From the sequence record NZ_CP035506.1: a DNA stretch of 64,000 bases; one strand, 5' to 3'. The notes beneath the pieces were generated by a model. That model saw only the letters and a program-made list of their open reading frames with translations. It did not search any database and had not been told where the DNA came from. Positions within the stretch are counted from its first letter, which is position 1; every line of letters starts with the position of its first letter. The stretch comes from a plasmid. The translations under genes were made by a program, and so were the position numbers. Below are positions 95 through 14,464 of the stretch, piece after piece.

Positions 95-1489
95 ATGCAG
101 ATGAGCACGGGACCGGAGGCCGATCCTCCCTATTTCAACATCTCGCCCGATGCGGCGCTAGCGGAACTGGGCGCCCCGGTGACCAGCCGCGGCTTTGCCG
201 AGATCGCCGCCGCCTGTGCCCGCGGGCGGGAGGATCTGGTGGGCCGGGGTCTCGATGCGCAGGGGCAGAAACGGCTCCGGCTCTTCTCCACCTGGGAGAT
301 CACCAGATACCTGATCCCCGTCGCGCCCCAGCATTTCCGCCGGGTGCTGCGCCAGAATCCCGAGCTGCCGCAGGGCGCCTCGGAGACGGAGGGTGGCGCC
401 AAGTGGTTCACGCTGGACGAGGTGCTCAGGCTGCGCGCCCATTTCGCCGCCGAAGGCTCCCGCGCGAAGGAATACCAGCCCTACCGGCCAAAGGGTCAGC
501 CCGCCAAGATCGTCGCGGTCGCGAACTTCAAGGGCGGGGTCGGCAAGACCTCCACCGCCGCGCATCTGGCCATGTCGGCGGCGCTCGACGGCTACCGGGT
601 GCTGGTGGTCGATCTGGACAGCCAGGGGTCGATGACCTCGATCTTCGGCGGTCAGGTGGCGGATGAATGGGGCACGGTCTTTCCGCTGCTCGCCCGCCAC
701 TATGCCCGCCACCTGCGCGTCTCCAATGCCGGGCGGATCGACCGGGGGGAGGCGCCGATCCCGATCGACGACACGCTGAACGAGGCGCTGAAGGTCACGG
801 CGGAAGAGCTGATCCGCCCGACCCACTGGCCGAATATCGACCTGATCGGCGCGCAGCTCAACCTCTACTGGGCCGAGTTCCAGATCCCCGTCTGGCGCAT
901 GGCCGCGCGCGGCTGGAAGCTCTGGGACGCGCTCTCCGAAAGCCTCGCCGAAGACGGGGTGCTGGAGAAATACGATCTCGTCTTTCTCGATACGCCCCCC
1001 GCGCTCGGCTACCTGACGATCAACGGGCTGTCGGCGGCGGATATCCTGCTCGTCCCGATGGGGGCCTCCTTCCTGGAGTTCGATTCCACGGGGCGGTTCT
1101 TCGACATGTTGCATTCCACCTTCGCCTCCATCGAGGAGGGGGAGAATGTGGCGGCCCGCGCGCTGGGGCGGCCGGAGCTTTCCTTCGAATGGGATGCGGT
1201 ACGCGCATTGGTCACCCGTTACGACGGCGCGCAGCAGGCGGAGCTGGCGGGGCTGATGCAGGCCTATCTGGGCCGTACCCTCTCCCCCTCCCGCCAGGGG
1301 TTCACCGCGCTGATCGGCCAGGCGGGGGAGCAGGTCGCCGGCATCTACGAGGCCGATTACCGCGACTTCAACCGCGACACCTATATCCGCGGGCGGGAGA
1401 CATTCGACGCGACCTATGCGGTGTTCAAGAAGCTGCTGCTGGGCTGCTGGCGGCGGGATGAACTGGCGTCGCGGGAGGCGGCCGAGTGA
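95..1489 (+). CDS. repA: ParA-family partition ATPase with long N-terminal extension (RepA-like)
   Basis: Walker A KGGVGKTSTAAHLA plus a roughly 150-aa N-terminal extension typical of RepA of repABC-type replicons. Stop TGA at 1487-1489 abuts the first palindrome. Confidence 0.85.
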   Translation: MQMSTGPEADPPYFNISPDAALAELGAPVTSRGFAEIAAACARGREDLVGRGLDAQGQKRLRLFSTWEITRYLIPVAPQHFRRVLRQNPELPQGASETEGGAKWFTLDEVLRLRAHFAAEGSRAKEYQPYRPKGQPAKIVAVANFKGGVGKTSTAAHLAMSAALDGYRVLVVDLDSQGSMTSIFGGQVADEWGTVFPLLARHYARHLRVSNAGRIDRGEAPIPIDDTLNEALKVTAEELIRPTHWPNIDLIGAQLNLYWAEFQIPVWRMAARGWKLWDALSESLAEDGVLEKYDLVFLDTPPALGYLTINGLSAADILLVPMGASFLEFDSTGRFFDMLHSTFASIEEGENVAARALGRPELSFEWDAVRALVTRYDGAQQAELAGLMQAYLGRTLSPSRQGFTALIGQAGEQVAGIYEADYRDFNRDTYIRGRETFDATYAVFKKLLLGCWRRDELASREAAE

Positions 1490-1508
1490 TGTTTCGCGCG
1501 CGAAACAT
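1489..1508. promoter_or_regulatory. parS-like perfect palindrome ATGTTTCGCGCGCGAAACAT (copy 1)
   Basis: 20-bp perfect inverted repeat immediately after the repA stop. The same 18-mer core recurs at 1806, 2985, 3079 and 13703. Confidence 0.7.
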
Positions 1509-1521
1509 CTCGGGTCGTCCA

Positions 1522-1557
1522 GAGCTTTTGCAGGGGCTTTTACAGGGGCTTTTGCAG
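1522..1557. repeat. 3 x 12-bp tandem repeat (GAGCTTTTGCAG / GGGCTTTTACAG / GGGCTTTTGCAG)
   Basis: Read directly in the repA-repB intergenic region, just downstream of palindrome 1. Confidence 0.6.
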
Positions 1558-1804
1558 ACCAAGGCAAGCGGCGTGATCCCGGAGCTGGCCCGCCCCGATG
1601 CGGCCCGGATGGCGGCCCATGGTGGCTTGCTGCCGGATGTCGCGGCGGCCGGGTGGGGCAAACCCCGGTGCCGGCAGAAGCCGACCAGGGCCGGCGGGGA
1701 TGTCCTCATGTCCTGCCGTCCCGCCAGCTGGCCCGCCAGCAGGGCCTGTCCCGCTTGGTCTGCCCCGCGTGGTCTGCCTGCCCTGGTGGCCCAACCAAAT
1801 CCTG

Positions 1805-1824
1805 ATGTTTCGCGCGCGAAACAT
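1805..1824. promoter_or_regulatory. parS-like palindrome ATGTTTCGCGCGCGAAACAT (copy 2)
   Basis: Identical 20-bp palindrome 20 bp upstream of the repB start. Confidence 0.7.
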
Positions 1825-1844
1825 TCCTGACCCGGAGGAGTCTC

Positions 1845-2984
1845 ATGGCCCGCAAGCGCCTCACCCTGCCCTTCGCCGCCGAGCCTGACCCGGCCGATAT
1901 GCCGGAGGGCCCGCTGGAGACGAAATCCATGCCCTTCGGCCCGGCCTCCCGGGCTGTTTCGCCCGTCCCGCCCGCCGCCCCCGCGCCGCGCCCGCCCCCC
2001 ATCTCCCGCATCGCAGCGGAGACGGCGGCCACCGCCGCGCTGGAGGCGCTGGCGGGAGAGGTGGCGGAGGCCCGCGCCACGGGACGGATGGTGGAGGCGC
2101 TGCCTCTCGACACCATCGACACCGGCCATCTGGTGCGCGACCGGGTGAGTTTCGATGGCGAGGATTTCGACGCGCTGGTGGAAAGCCTGCGCCTCCATGG
2201 CCAGCGCGCCCCGGTGGAGGTGATCGACCTCGGCCAAGGCTTCCGCTCAGATCTGCACCTCAGTTCTGCAGACGGCGAGACCCGGGGCAGGGTGATGGGA
2301 CAAGGCGATGCCGCGCGCGATGCCGCTCCCGAAACTGGGCGCCGCTACGGCCTGATCTCCGGCTGGCGGCGGCTCTCCGCGCTCCGGCGGCTCCATGCGG
2401 AAACGGGGGAGGCGCGGTTCGCAACCGTGCTGGCGCTGCTGCGGACACCCGAAAGCTCGGGCGCCGCCTATGTCGCCATGGTGGAGGAGAACGAGATCCG
2501 CGCGGGCCTGAGCTATTACGAGCGGGCCCGCATCGCCGCCAAGGCGGTGGAGGCGGGCGCCTTCGCCGATCGGGGAGAAGCGCTCCGCAGCCTTTACGCC
2601 ACGGCGAGCCGGGCCAAGCGGTCGAAGATCGGCTCCTTCCTCAACCTCTACGACGCGCTGGATGGCAGTCTCCGCTTCCCGGCAGCAATCGGTGAGCGGC
2701 TGGGGCTGCAACTGGCGCAACGGCTGGCGGAGGAGCCGGAGGCGGGGGCGGCTCTGGCCCGCCTTCTGAGCAGCGGGGAGAGCGCGGATCCGGCCATGGA
2801 ACTGGCCACTCTTGCCCGGTGGGCCGAAGCACCGCGATCCGCCCTCCGGCAGAAGACCGCCGCACAGGAGATCCTGCCCGGCATTGCCATGACGGGTGGC
2901 GCAAGGCGCATCGTCCTCAGCGGCCCGGCAGTGACCCCGGCGCTCCGCGACCGGCTCGCGGAATGGCTGCGTCTGCAGGGCTGA
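1845..2984 (+). CDS. repB: ParB/RepB-family partition protein
   Basis: ParB-like N-terminal domain with motif GLISGWRRLSALRRL, directly downstream of the ParA homologue. Confidence 0.85.
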   Translation: MARKRLTLPFAAEPDPADMPEGPLETKSMPFGPASRAVSPVPPAAPAPRPPPISRIAAETAATAALEALAGEVAEARATGRMVEALPLDTIDTGHLVRDRVSFDGEDFDALVESLRLHGQRAPVEVIDLGQGFRSDLHLSSADGETRGRVMGQGDAARDAAPETGRRYGLISGWRRLSALRRLHAETGEARFATVLALLRTPESSGAAYVAMVEENEIRAGLSYYERARIAAKAVEAGAFADRGEALRSLYATASRAKRSKIGSFLNLYDALDGSLRFPAAIGERLGLQLAQRLAEEPEAGAALARLLSSGESADPAMELATLARWAEAPRSALRQKTAAQEILPGIAMTGGARRIVLSGPAVTPALRDRLAEWLRLQG

Positions 2985-3001
2985 CGTTTCGCGCGCGAAA
3001 C
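2985..3001. promoter_or_regulatory. parS-like palindrome GTTTCGCGCGCGAAAC(A) (copy 3)
   Basis: 16-17 bp palindrome starting one base after the repB stop. Confidence 0.65.
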
Positions 3002-3077
3002 ACGGGGGAGCTCGTGTTCGCCTTCGGGGCCAGGCGAAACACGTGGGGAGGCCGAGCGTGTCGCCTGAGGGAGCTGA

Positions 3078-3097
3078 ATGTTTCGCGCGCGAAACAT
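3078..3097. promoter_or_regulatory. parS-like palindrome ATGTTTCGCGCGCGAAACAT (copy 4)
   Basis: Identical 20-bp palindrome about 90 bp downstream of copy 3. Confidence 0.7.
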
Positions 3098-3340
3098 GGC
3101 CGGAGAGGGAAGCGGCCCCGAATAGCGGTGACGGATCGGGTGAAACAGGATGGTCCTCCACATCTGCCCTTCCGGCCGCTCCCCCGGGGGTGCCGGCAGC
3201 AGACAGGCGCGCGGCCCCTGCGCAGGGCCAGAGCTCTGGACGGGATCGGAAAGTGATTTGCATTGCCGTCCCAAGGCGTCAGTCTCAGACGGACGGGCCT
3301 GCCGCTCCCCGCCGGGCCGCCAGATGCGGACGCTGACGCC

Positions 3341-5215
3341 ATGATCCTCCCTGCCTTCCCCTGCCGCCGGGCGACGATCCATGCCCTTTCCCGGGCGAGG
3401 CACCGCTCGCCGCCGGGAAAACGGGGCGCCTCGGCCCTCCGCCTGCTTCCGGCGACCTTGCTATGCGCCCTGCTGGCCACCGCCTTCGTCGCGCTGCCGG
3501 TGACGCGTCCCGCGGCCGCCTCCCCCCCTTCCGGGCAGGTCGTGACGCCGGAGCCGACGGAGACCTTCACCGTCAGCTCGTCCGACGGGACGGTCCGGAT
3601 ATCGGGTCTGATGCCGGAAGGATCGCAGATCGGCTATACGTCGGACCCGCAGCGCCAGGCCGTCATCGTGCCGCCTGCGGGCGGTATCGTGCGCATCGTG
3701 TCGCGCAGCCCTGCGACGACGACCGATGCCTATGGCCGGACGATCCACGGCGCCACGCTCAATCCGGGGCCGGAGCGCCGCGGATATGATCAGCGGGCCA
3801 AGTCCCAGGACGGCCGTATCAACGCCATGCATCAGCCCGAGGCGGTGGCGCAGTTCCCGCTCGAGATGCGGCGGGGGGACATCCTGGTGGCGGCCCGGTC
3901 GCATATCCGCCGCGCCGGAGACTCGGGCACGTCGCTGGTGGACGAATATTTCGGCCTGATGATCGGCGACACGCTGCCCGGGCCCAACGACTTCGCGCCC
4001 CCCGTGAACCGGGCGGCGGTGGCGCCCATCGTTCTGGAGCGGGTGGATGTGGATCACATCCTGCGCGTCCTTCCGCGCCGCTCCGCCGCCGGCACCCGCC
4101 CGCCGCGCGACCTTGAGGCTTATCTGGCGCGGGCGGAGATGTTTCAGGCCTCGCTCGGCACGAACACCATTCCGGGAAACGGCGCGGAGCAGGGCGGTTA
4201 CCGGGAATACATGCCCTATGGCACGGGGGTGATGGACAGCAACTACGGGCGGGAGGTCGCGGCGATGCAGGCCGCGATCCTGCCCCTCCTGTGGACCGAT
4301 GCCGGCAGCCCCGAGCAGGTCAGGCGCGCGGTGAAGGCGGTGATTTCATGGGGCATTCAGGTCCGCGGTCTCGATCTCGGCCCGAACGGGGGGCTGTGGT
4401 CCTTCATGTTCCCCATGGTCTATCTCGAGCAGCACTGGGCGGGGGCGGATCTCTCAGGGTTCATCATCGGGGACCGGGGGCAAAGCTCCCCCGCGGGCGG
4501 CAACATCCTCGGCCAGTATTACGTGGAGACGGAAGAAAGCCTCGCGCGGTACCGCACCCCGCATGAAAGCCTCGACCTGCCGTTGATCACCCGCATCCGC
4601 ACCGTTGTCAGCGTGGCGGGGCCGAAGGTCACCATCTCCAACAGCGAGACGGAACGGCCGAACAGCAACATGAGCAAGGGGGGGCTGGCGGGCCTGCTGC
4701 TGAAATCCGTCGACGGTGCCAAAAGCGCCCGTATCTCCCAGCCGCGGGGGGGCAATGTGAGGGGGGATATCACCCTGACCCTCATGGGAGGCAACCCGTT
4801 CCGTCCCGGGGATCGGGTCTTCATGTCGGAGGACGGGACGCTGAAACCCGGCGATCCGAACTGGGCGATCCGCTGGGGCACCGATACGCGCAGCGCGCGT
4901 CAGGCGGACAATCCCTCGCCCTTTGCGGATTACCGGGTGATCGCGACGGGGCTGGAATTCGTGATGGCGGCGCAGGCGCTGGGGATCGTCCAGCCGTCCT
5001 GGAAGGCGAGCCTTGTGGAATATGCCCGCCGCACCGTTCCCCCCACGGGGCGGGAGTTCGGCGATTATCCCTCTGCGCAATGGCCCTATCCGCATATCTC
5101 CGAGGACGAGGTGACCGGGCACAACAATCCCCGCGACACATGGGGCCTGCGCCTGTGGCGCAAGCATTGGCCAGAGCTGGCCGAAATCCCGCAGAGACCC
5201 GCTTCGGCGCCGTGA
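3341..5215 (+). CDS. Hypothetical secreted protein (about 620 aa), function unknown
   Basis: Long ORF with high coding potential. Signal-peptide-like segment LRLLPATLLCALLATAFVALPVTRPAAA. Start placed at the internal ATG at 3341; the ORF could begin as far upstream as 3263. No family recognised by eye. Confidence 0.5.
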   Translation: MILPAFPCRRATIHALSRARHRSPPGKRGASALRLLPATLLCALLATAFVALPVTRPAAASPPSGQVVTPEPTETFTVSSSDGTVRISGLMPEGSQIGYTSDPQRQAVIVPPAGGIVRIVSRSPATTTDAYGRTIHGATLNPGPERRGYDQRAKSQDGRINAMHQPEAVAQFPLEMRRGDILVAARSHIRRAGDSGTSLVDEYFGLMIGDTLPGPNDFAPPVNRAAVAPIVLERVDVDHILRVLPRRSAAGTRPPRDLEAYLARAEMFQASLGTNTIPGNGAEQGGYREYMPYGTGVMDSNYGREVAAMQAAILPLLWTDAGSPEQVRRAVKAVISWGIQVRGLDLGPNGGLWSFMFPMVYLEQHWAGADLSGFIIGDRGQSSPAGGNILGQYYVETEESLARYRTPHESLDLPLITRIRTVVSVAGPKVTISNSETERPNSNMSKGGLAGLLLKSVDGAKSARISQPRGGNVRGDITLTLMGGNPFRPGDRVFMSEDGTLKPGDPNWAIRWGTDTRSARQADNPSPFADYRVIATGLEFVMAAQALGIVQPSWKASLVEYARRTVPPTGREFGDYPSAQWPYPHISEDEVTGHNNPRDTWGLRLWRKHWPELAEIPQRPASAP

Positions 5216-7312: not shown

Positions 7313-8235
7313 TATTCTTGCCTCTATTTTGCTCCTAGGGGAGCGCGGGTTCAAATTCGATGTCCACGCCGGGAAACTGGGTATCATGCAACTGTATAAA
7401 TGTTGCAGAAGCAAGCCTGTTGCCGGGTGGTTTAATAAGGCAATTCTGTAAGTTTATCAGAGAAATGTCCAACATTTTCTGACGATATATCCGATGTTTT
7501 TCGACATCAGGGCGGCTGTATCAATTGCTGTATAATTTTGCAGGACAGGGTGCGATCTGCCAAAGCGTTCGGCAGCAGCGGAATTGTCATATGAAGATGA
7601 CATGAAAGGCATGGGATGCGCGGGAGTGGCGGGGGGTGAAGGATCGATTCAGGGCAGATATCCGTCACGTGAGCAGGACTTCTCCGAATGATATTAGATG
7701 CATCTTGATGGACCGGAATTGGCAACAGTCCCGGAGAATTAGCCACCCGGTTCACACGAAAGAAACACAGCGGGCGTGTTCATGGCAGAGCGGGCGGAAA
7801 GATGGAGCTCATGATGAAAGGTTCCCTGCTTTTCCATTTGGTCTCCGCCATGATCTTGATGGGCCGTGAGCTCGATCGACCGCGATCGGGCCGCTCCTTG
7901 ATCGGGCGAGGCCGCAGACTTCGCAAACAGCAGGCAGGGCTGCCTGCCTTGCCGTCCGGCCCGGACGATTGCCGCCTGTCGCCGGCAAATCGTATTCCCG
8001 TCCGATGCTTCCCGCCCGATGCGGTTTGCGAAACGGCGGCCCGCGCTGTCATGCGGAAGGGCCGCCGCTCCACCGTCAGGCCGGCCCGACAAGGCGGCCG
8101 TCTGGGCCGGCCCTGCACGGGGCGGTTCGAAGAGTCCCGTCAGGTGAAACCCGAACTCTGCATATCGATGGATTTTCCGGCGTGATCCTCGGCCGGAAGC
8201 GTCCTAGAGTCGCATGACATAAGGGGCCGGCGATC

Positions 8236-13702: not shown

Positions 13703-13720
13703 TGTTTCGCGCGCGAAACG
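13703..13720. promoter_or_regulatory. Orphan fifth copy of the parS-like palindrome (TGTTTCGCGCGCGAAACG)
   Basis: 16-bp perfect palindrome GTTTCGCGCGCGAAAC at 13704-13719, identical to the core of the four sites beside repAB. Lies in the 3'-intergenic spacer next to the SDR gene. Confidence 0.6.
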
Positions 13721-14464
13721 TCAGGCCGTGGAGCCGCCGTCCACGGTGATGACGGTGCCGGAGACCTTGCCGCCGTCGGGGCCGAGCAGATACATCACCG
13801 CGACCGCCGCATCGTCCGGATCGGGCAGGCCGAGGGGGGCGCGGCGCTTGATCGAGTCCATCTTGTCCGACGGAATGCCGAGGCTCATCTCCGTGACCAT
13901 GTAGCCCGGCGCCACGCAGTTGACCGTGATCCCCCGCTTGCCGAGTTCGCGCGAGAGCGAGCGGGTGAACCCCTCCAGCCCCGCCTTGGTCGCCGCATAG
14001 GCGGCCAGCCCGTTGAACCCGGTGGAGGCGATGATCGAGGAGATCGAGATGATCCGCCCCGCCCGTGCCGAGAGCATGGAGCGGGAGGCGTATTTCGCGA
14101 AGACGATGGCGGAGGTGAGGTTCACGTCGATCATGTACTGGATGTCGGTCAGGTGCTGGGTGGCGAGCACCCCGTCCTTGCCGATGCCGGCATTGTTGAC
14201 CACGCCCCAGATCGGCCCGTGCCGGTCCACCGTCTCGCGGATGAAGGGGGGGATCGCGTCCAGATTGCTCACGTCGAACGGGTGGAACTCCACCTTGTCC
14301 GCGCCGTATTCGGCGATCAGCGCCTCATAGGCCGGGGTCAGCTTCCGCGACAGGCCGACGAGCCGGTAGGACGGATCCGCCGCCACCCGGCGGGCGATGG
14401 CAAGGCCCAGGCCTTGCGAGACACCGGTGACGATGACGGTCTTCAGGTTCGGCGGGGTCGTCAT
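13721..14464 (-). CDS. Short-chain dehydrogenase/reductase (3-oxoacyl-ACP reductase FabG-like)
   Basis: TGxxxGxG-type N-terminus (VIVTGVSQGLGLAIA), NNAG, catalytic YAATKAG. Confidence 0.85.
   Translation of the reverse strand: MTTPPNLKTVIVTGVSQGLGLAIARRVAADPSYRLVGLSRKLTPAYEALIAEYGADKVEFHPFDVSNLDAIPPFIRETVDRHGPIWGVVNNAGIGKDGVLATQHLTDIQYMIDVNLTSAIVFAKYASRSMLSARAGRIISISSIIASTGFNGLAAYAATKAGLEGFTRSLSRELGKRGITVNCVAPGYMVTEMSLGIPSDKMDSIKRRAPLGLPDPDDAAVAVMYLLGPDGGKVSGTVITVDGGSTA

Follow-up and report, generated by a model that had tools for sequence, protein, structure and literature searches.

The palindromic element described here surrounds the parA and parB genes of a plasmid (64,000 nt of sequence record NZ_CP035506.1; this whole stretch is referred to as the window) and is best viewed against the centromere (parS) sites that are already known. 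The chromosomal parS site is TGTTNCACGTGAAACA, and the Spo0J/ParB proteins are cytidine triphosphate (CTP) clamps. In plasmid P1, parS combines box A/B motifs with an integration host factor (IHF) site, while sopC of plasmid F is an array of 43-bp repeats; in these type Ia systems, ParA binds an operator within its own promoter. The parS sites of repABC plasmids follow a strict consensus, GTTNNCNGCNGNNAAC, or a relaxed one, GTTNNNNGCNNNNAAC, and plasmid pAMI4 carries both the site GTTGACAGCTGTCAAC and a 3parS locus, 11.5 kb downstream of repC, that is bound by RepB and required for partition (PMC9040568). Papers from the Petersen group and from Czarnecki et al. give palindromes for repABC groups only. 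The RepA-type replicon class is taken from the classification of Petersen and colleagues, and passages of a published study (PMC5030684) treat RepA-I as one compatibility group and place its replication origin between repA and parA.

The palindromes of the window are very probably the parS sites of a type Ia ParABS system on a Rhodobacterales plasmid of the RepA-I type, and the ParB protein encoded between them is their likely binder. Direct observation covers the anatomy of the locus, the conservation of site and position over orthologous loci, the way the site tracks ParB ancestry, and the family assignments of ParA and ParB. A scan of the whole window found exact copies of GTTTCGCGCGCGAAAC starting at nt 1491, 1807, 2986, 3080 and 13704, four of them clustered in 1.6 kb around parB. 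Allowing up to three mismatches gave seven matches (0.70 expected), a number reached by none of 100 shuffled sequences, and allowing up to two arm mismatches with a 2-bp centre returned the five perfect sites and nothing else in the 64 kb. Site 1 (nt 1488–1509, core nt 1491–1506) is a perfect 22-bp palindrome, GATGTTTCGCGCGCGAAACATC, that overlaps the parA stop codon (TGA, nt 1487–1489). Site 2 (nt 1805–1824, core nt 1807–1822) is a perfect 20-bp palindrome, ATGTTTCGCGCGCGAAACAT, situated 20 bp 5' of the parB start codon (ATG at nt 1845). Site 3 (nt 2986–3001) begins 1 bp past the parB stop codon (nt 2982–2984) and is perfect over the 16 bp of GTTTCGCGCGCGAAAC only, the outer pair of its context (cGTTTC...GAAACa) breaking the symmetry. 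Site 4 (nt 3078–3097, core nt 3080–3095) is 94 bp beyond site 3 and repeats the perfect 20-bp palindrome of site 2. Site 5 (nt 13703–13720, core nt 13704–13719; TGTTTCGCGCGCGAAACg) has a perfect 16-bp core, is 10.7 kb past parB and abuts the stop codon of a minus-strand open reading frame (ORF; nt 13721–14464). A preliminary description of this DNA had listed four perfect 18–20 bp palindromes around the two genes. Their positions, the distances to the codons and the 355-bp spacer between the genes are all borne out by the sequence, as is the count of four at the locus, but the perfect lengths are 22, 20, 16 and 20 bp, and the fifth exact copy at nt 13704 was absent from that list. Between sites 3 and 4 there is also a degenerate, split copy of the motif (nt 3013–3043; CGTGTTCGCC, 10 nt, GGCGAAACACG), possibly a hairpin or the remnant of a former site; its right half is among the 13 lone half-sites of the window (7.6 expected), a count that carries no information.

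The DNA preceding the window is known from L135, a Joint Genome Institute (JGI) metagenome contig found by exact-protein look-up, which reaches 3 kb upstream of the window and shows four mismatches to it in 11,489 aligned bp. L135 carries two more exact sites beyond the upstream end of the window, one 5 bp past the repA stop codon and the other about 1 kb further, so that with the five in the window the plasmid total is at least seven, of which six bracket the repA-oriV-parA-parB module in 5.6 kb. The repA gene, which falls outside the window (L135, nt 1383–2471, minus strand), specifies an RPA-domain initiator (PF10134) and is divergent from parA, 552 bp upstream of it. The clustering of the five exact 16-mers, together with the two around the initiator gene, is far beyond chance.

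The same arrangement recurs in related plasmids. Nine RepA-I loci were chosen in PLSDB for the similarity of their ParA or ParB, blind to the palindrome, and represent nine genera (Cereibacter, Dinoroseobacter, Gemmobacter, Rhodovulum, Roseobacter, Antarctobacter, Leisingera, Phaeobacter and Ruegeria). The motif GTTTCGC-NN-GCGAAAC is present within 1.6 kb of parB in all nine plasmids, with a chance expectation, by our own estimate, of about 4e-5 per 10-kb locus. Its arms never differ, while the centre is GC, AT, GT or AC, a combination of invariant arms and variable centre to be expected if a helix-turn-helix dimer binds. The initiator is divergent from parAB in eight of the nine; the record of the 65-kb Phaeobacter inhibens plasmid ends upstream of parA. 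A search for the exact 18-mer TGTTTCGCGCGCGAAACA among species-representative genomes returned at least 120 stretches, nearly all from Rhodobacterales; orthologous parAB genes are found in about 30 of the 120 8-kb blocks among the matches listed, the fractions with and without parAB not being population estimates. Across 29 RepA-I loci, a site follows the parB stop codon within 200 bp in 24, and one or two sites separate parA from parB in 11. The complete plasmid of Rhodovulum sp. P5 (64,103 bp) has exactly five sites, after rfbD, after repA, after parA (two) and after parB, all within 7.3 kb around rep/par, and a scan of its complete sequence detected none in the other 57 kb. Antarctobacter and Gemmobacter also have extra copies at a distance (+3.6 kb and +2.6 kb, respectively), as does Rhodovulum, 3.3 kb past repA. 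The nine loci, the positions in the 29 loci and the Rhodovulum plasmid indicate that the architecture of the window is the norm for this family. Counting every locus in which the palindrome beside orthologous parAB is identical or altered only in its central dinucleotide, it is shared by more than 20 genera, and RepA-I is already treated as one compatibility group; the earlier proposal that the site defines a distinct partition or incompatibility specificity is not supported.

Among individual members of the group, the 65-kb biofilm plasmid of P. inhibens, pRSPH01 of Cereibacter sphaeroides, pDSHI02 of Dinoroseobacter shibae and pRGUI04 of Rhodovulum sp. P5 all share with this plasmid a repA-I gene divergent from parAB, polysaccharide-synthesis cargo and the same palindrome at corresponding positions. 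Two identical copies separate parA from parB in pRSPH01; in pRGUI04 the sites follow repA, parA (twice) and parB. The plasmid studied here differs from them in its 355-bp spacer, in a 30-amino-acid insertion in ParB (described below) and in having more sites (at least seven), and some of the relatives differ in having AT, GT or AC as the centre.

The parA gene (nt 95–1489, plus strand) encodes a Walker-type partition ATPase of type Ia (464 amino acids), in which an N-terminal extension of 135 amino acids is followed by the Walker A motif at residues 138–146. It matches the Pfam families AAA_31, CbiA, MipZ and ParA, and its PDB matches include Soj and the ParA of P1 (3ez2/3ez9). The closest matches at the DNA level are plasmids of Rhodobacterales: parA is about 80–82% identical in nucleotides to its counterparts on plasmids of Cereibacter, Rhodobacter and Dinoroseobacter, and in pRSPH01 and pDSHI02, which were those examined, the neighbouring gene is annotated as 'replication initiator protein A', with parAB divergent from it. 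The parB gene (nt 1845–2984, plus strand) specifies a ParB-family protein (379 amino acids) with a ParB/Srx N-terminal domain and a central helix-turn-helix region. It carries the motifs GxRRxxA (G173–A179) and ENxxR (E215, N216, R219), residues G173, R175, R176, A179, E215, N216 and R219 being invariant. A profile built from the alignment of this protein with 14 plasmid homologues matched chains of Noc, ParB, KorB and sulfiredoxin in the PDB at about 1e-8, the match to Noc (7nfu) extending over profile positions 69–295 and so taking in the N-domain plus the helix-turn-helix region. The Pfam ParB_N model matches 12 of the 15 family members. The N-terminal domain of the window protein contains an insertion of about 30 amino acids, GFRSDLHLSSADGETRGRVMGQGDAARDAAPETGR (residues ~133–166, nt 2241–2342), that is absent from all 14 aligned homologues. 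The N-terminal extension of ParA, the domain motifs of ParB and the repeated, conserved sites that change with the ParB lineage are all features of a type Ia system.

The preliminary description had called the two genes repA and repB of a repABC plasmid. Both proteins do score best against the repABC RepA and RepB models, yet far under the curated cut-offs: the best NCBIfam match of ParA is partition_RepA (TIGR03453), with 200 bits against a cut-off of 348, and ParB matches partition_RepB (TIGR03454) weakly, with 51 bits against 201. No repC follows parB, the next gene (nt 3263–5215) having no Pfam family; the search for RepC domains did not extend to the remaining large ORFs of the window. 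A repABC replicon is ruled out by these cut-offs, by the neighbouring genes in related plasmids and by the upstream RPA initiator, and that initiator, divergent from parA on L135, identifies the element as a RepA-type replicon instead. On similarity rather than phylogeny, the replicon is assigned to the Rhodobacterales RepA-I type.

This system and the repABC systems each pair a large ATPase of the ParA type with a ParB-family protein, and both have 16-bp palindromic sites with the frame GTT-N4-GC-N4-AAC, in several identical copies in or next to the partition genes and in occasional copies kilobases away (11.5 kb downstream for 3parS of pAMI4, 10.7 kb for site 5 here). The differences are that the plasmid described here has a divergent RPA-domain initiator and no repC or repABC operon, that its ParA and ParB fall under the RepA/RepB equivalog cut-offs, and that a spacer separates parA and parB, while their repABC counterparts overlap. 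At the symmetric positions 6 and 11, the sites have G and C rather than C and G. As to the earlier statement that the sequence departs from the repABC parS consensus, the site misses the strict consensus GTTNNCNGCNGNNAAC at positions 6 and 11 but fits the relaxed one, GTTNNNNGCNNNNAAC. Chromosomal ParB-parS systems have identical outer arms (TGTTTC/GAAACA), the GxxRxxA and ENxxR CTP-binding motifs and sites clustered around parB, but the centre of the plasmid site is 2 bp longer (GTTTCGC-GC-GCGAAAC versus GTTTCAC-GTGAAAC), and chromosomal Soj proteins do not have the 135-amino-acid N-terminal extension of this ParA. P1 ParABS and F SopABC are similar in their large ParA with an N-terminal regulatory domain, in an operator-like inverted repeat at the parA promoter and in a ParB of the ParB/Srx family; they differ in their centromeres, which here consist of dispersed, single 16-bp palindromes.

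More distant relatives bear on the form of the site. Plasmids with RepB-type initiators from Paroceanicella, Rhodovulum sulfidophilum and Paracoccus pantotrophus encode ParB proteins 37–40% identical to that of the window, and their sites retain both arms around a single central base, GTTTCGC-N-GCGAAAC. These 15-bp sites lie upstream of parA and within the coding sequences of parA and parB. In loci with RepB-type or other initiators (ParB ~37–40% identical), they were mapped at nt 2745, 4337 and 5069 of L130, nt 1291, 3550 and 4317 of L131, nt 4329 and 5381 of L132, and nt 511, 1365 and 2117 of L133. In P. inhibens plasmid pPGA1_78, the site is GTTTCG-NNN-CGAAAC, and a DnaA-like plasmid whose ParB is 32% identical carries GTTACCGGCCGGTAAC right after parB. 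A putative recognition segment of ParB (..SRAKRSKI.SF..) is invariant among the clades with common arms. In these sequence comparisons, the site tracks ParB ancestry and not initiator type. Its presence in coding sequence and its change with the ParB lineage speak against terminators, REP (repetitive extragenic palindromic) elements and initiator binding sites. In P. inhibens, the 65-kb plasmid has sites of the 16-bp type and the 78-kb plasmid sites of the 15-bp type, and the spacing may thus keep the two compatible. The sites form a series of chromosomal 14-bp core, RepB-type 15-bp, and RepA-I and repABC 16-bp palindromes, all with GTT...AAC ends, and provide a natural data set on the diversification of ParB specificity.

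By analogy with ParB CTP clamps and type Ia systems, we infer that ParB binds these sites and spreads from them in a CTP-dependent manner, and that the system has a role in plasmid stability. A ParB dimer would read the arms GTTTCGC and GCGAAAC of each 16-bp site through its helix-turn-helix (parB, nt 1845–2984), leaving the central dinucleotide unread, and parS binding would load ParB as a CTP-dependent sliding clamp. Clamps from the six sites spread over about 5.6 kb would cover the whole repA-oriV-parA-parB module, with the distant seventh site as an additional loading point. Positioning of the ParB-DNA complex by the ParA ATPase (nt 95–1489) would then ensure that a copy of the plasmid passes to every daughter cell. 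The centromere-like organisation proposed in the preliminary description, with the neighbouring ParB as the likely binder, thus finds its support in comparative evidence. The feature itself is ordinary and widely shared, apparently an undescribed member of a very well-known kind with a standard mechanism.

The following observations weigh against a centromere. Of the five sites in the window, three directly adjoin a stop codon, as is typical also of REP elements and terminators. In a threshold search, Pfam ParB_N misses the window ParB itself, probably because of the 30-amino-acid insertion. In the literature searched, neither the site sequence nor the topic of a RepA-I parS led to a publication in which the sequence is printed. 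The exact 18-mer also occurs away from any parAB, on large contigs or complete chromosomes, so that another factor may recognise the site as well. Most of the 120 blocks among the matches listed contain no parAB in the same 8 kb, and some of these copies probably sit elsewhere on plasmids. At least 15 copies, however, are on contigs of more than 500 kb or on complete chromosomes, for example at 2.98 Mb of 4.5 Mb in Marivita and at 1.5 Mb of 3.9 Mb in Arenibacterium, with others on a 4.25-Mb scaffold of Leisingera aquimarina and in Cribrihabitans. By our estimate, fewer than one match to the 18-mer would arise by chance in all Rhodobacterales genomes. The preliminary description had taken abundance on the chromosome as grounds for giving up a centromere; there is no such abundance for this replicon, yet the 18-mer is present on other Rhodobacterales chromosomes.

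Away from parAB, many copies of the 18-mer sit in a composite element of about 66 bp with three palindromes, namely a hairpin, the TGTTTCGCGCGCGAAACA core and a mirrored hairpin, of the form [tAGGTC(A/C)G..C(G/T)GACC]-AA-TGTTTCGCGCGCGAAACA-TT-[GGTC..GACCTa] (L005, L006, L010, L013, L014, L021, L038, L049, L054, L097, L100, L101 and others). The composite elements are intergenic, often between convergent genes, and a TTAA-N7-TTAA (CtrA-box-like) motif is no more than 50 nt away in 13 of 98 such sites. Comparison of orthologous loci, from three species of Leisingera and from three Marivita-like genomes, shows differing loops but no change in palindrome or stems, which points to selection. The hairpin-flanked form is also seen at plasmid sites of Leisingera and Tritonibacter; the window sites have no flanking GGTC..GACC hairpins. 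The strict regular expression used for the flanking hairpins under-counts them, and a relaxed pattern applied away from the palindrome found only generic GC hairpins, the specific arms occurring only alongside the palindrome in the DNA compared. Neither Rfam nor a literature search returned anything for the composite element. A gene beside one chromosomal copy in Marivita, considered as a parB from its 'MAVKRL' start, codes for an unrelated small protein. Cribrihabitans neustonicus combines a RepA-I parAB contig bearing three sites with copies on a 1.07-Mb contig.

A possible but rather unlikely reading is that the RepA-I centromere, also the invariant core of the chromosomal composite element, lets the ParB of the plasmid mark the host chromosome. 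Were ParB to bind the chromosomal copies, tethering or titration could result, or cross-talk in the segregation of plasmid and chromosome. In the same reading, the series of sites would mean that compatible plasmids of one species, namely the RepA-I plasmid and the second replicon type of P. inhibens, are distinguished chiefly by 1 bp of spacing between identical parS arms. It is improbable that the palindromes are REP elements, parts of bacterial interspersed mosaic elements (BIME) or weak bidirectional terminators, that is, 3'-end hairpins incidental to partition. The position of sites 1, 3 and 5 and of the L135 site after repA, all 0–5 bp from stop codons as in many relatives, would fit such elements, and so would the identical 18-mer at the core of an intergenic element often found between convergent genes, whose palindrome and hairpin stems are kept across species while its loops vary. 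On the other hand, no T-run follows the sites and a terminator scan calls none of them, and the window copies have no flanking hairpins and are clustered at rep/par. Sites of this family are confined to rep/par in one complete plasmid, as are six of the seven on this partly sequenced replicon; the homologous sites of the RepB-type relatives are inside parA and parB coding sequence, and the motif changes with the ParB lineage.

An operator borrowed by the plasmid from a host-encoded DNA-binding protein, either a PpsR/CrtJ-type repressor or another factor that would also bind the chromosomal copies, is a very improbable alternative. The conservation of chromosomal copies at orthologous loci whose 8-kb blocks contain no parAB would suit it, as would the TTAA-N7-TTAA motif within 50 nt of 13 of the 98 sites. 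The PpsR consensus is TGT-N12-ACA, which the site formally fits when read from the sequence. The plasmid sites, however, follow stop codons and are not in promoters. Phaeobacter and Leisingera are non-phototrophs, and the presence of the same site on their plasmids makes PpsR unlikely. That the site is strictly tied to a single ParB clade, and differently spaced in the sister clade, points to ParB. Binding of the RepA initiator (iteron-like control or handcuffing) is hardly credible, for although sites occur 5 bp past the repA stop codon and about 1 kb beyond, as on Rhodovulum and Leisingera plasmids, the intergenic region between repA and parA, to which the origin is assigned, contains no copy, the sites are palindromic rather than directly repeated, and plasmids with unrelated RepB-type initiators but a related ParB keep the same arms.

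With the palindromes taken as putative parS sites, the remaining question is whether they also regulate the par genes. The spacer between parA and parB measures 355 bp compared with 66–169 bp in relatives, and the extra DNA is found between sites 1 and 2 (nt 1510–1804, non-coding); the matching two sites are just 56 bp apart in pRSPH01. The interval contains short tandem repeats (a 12-mer present 2.8 times at nt 1524–1557 and a 14-mer present 2.4 times at nt 1746–1778) and appears to be an expansion of the segment between the two sites. The GC content at third codon positions (GC3) of all ORFs in the spacer is 0.69–0.73, versus 0.84–0.88 in parA and parB, and a 113-amino-acid gene placed there by the JGI annotation (GC3 of 0.73) is probably spurious. 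Searches of the spacer gave no Rfam match, and a consensus scan found no promoter-like or terminator-like site; RNA folding merely pairs its two identical palindromes. Upstream of parA there is, by contrast, an imperfect inverted repeat (nt 4–45) with arms ATGTACCGCGTTTT (nt 4–17) and AAAAGCGATACAT (nt 33–45), which is distinct from the palindrome and is not one of its copies. This repeat of about 44 bp, with arms CATGT..TTTT and AAAA..ACAT, is kept upstream of parA in all ten aligned RepA-I loci. By analogy with the ParA operators of P1 and F, it is a candidate par operator/promoter and a likelier site of autoregulation than the palindromes. The suggestion that the pair of palindromes flanking the spacer mediates autoregulation is consequently not retained, the spacer having no promoter-like site and the repeat at nt 4–45 being conserved. 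If ParB binds site 2 as predicted, only 20 bp short of the parB ATG, it could yet influence the expression of that gene.

RepA-I is the commonest plasmid type carrying the rhamnose and biofilm genes of roseobacters. GTTTCGC-NN-GCGAAAC provides a concrete candidate centromere sequence for these plasmids, for which no published parS was found in the literature searched. The site would be useful for building stable vectors, for curing plasmids by incompatibility and for assigning metagenomic contigs to plasmids.

Several further features of these plasmids were recorded. On pDSHI02 of D. shibae (L002, nt 7704–7752), two sites stand 14 bp apart after parB, one of 17 bp, TGTTTCGC-T-GCGAAACA, and the other of 18 bp, TGTTTCGC-AT-GCGAAACA, so that one plasmid carries equal arms with unequal spacing. 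In the window, the gene directly past the par module (nt 3263–5215) encodes a protein of 624–650 amino acids with a signal-peptide-like N-terminus and a GC3 of 0.85; the product has no Pfam or NCBIfam match. Glycosyltransferase and epimerase genes are found downstream of parB on L135. The repA-parA intergenic region of this contig (nt 2560–2760), the presumed origin, contains repeats with GGTTTC (cgtggtttc twice and ggggtttcgg) as well as an AT-rich patch, taactataaaataact, and these are iteron-like candidates for RepA binding.

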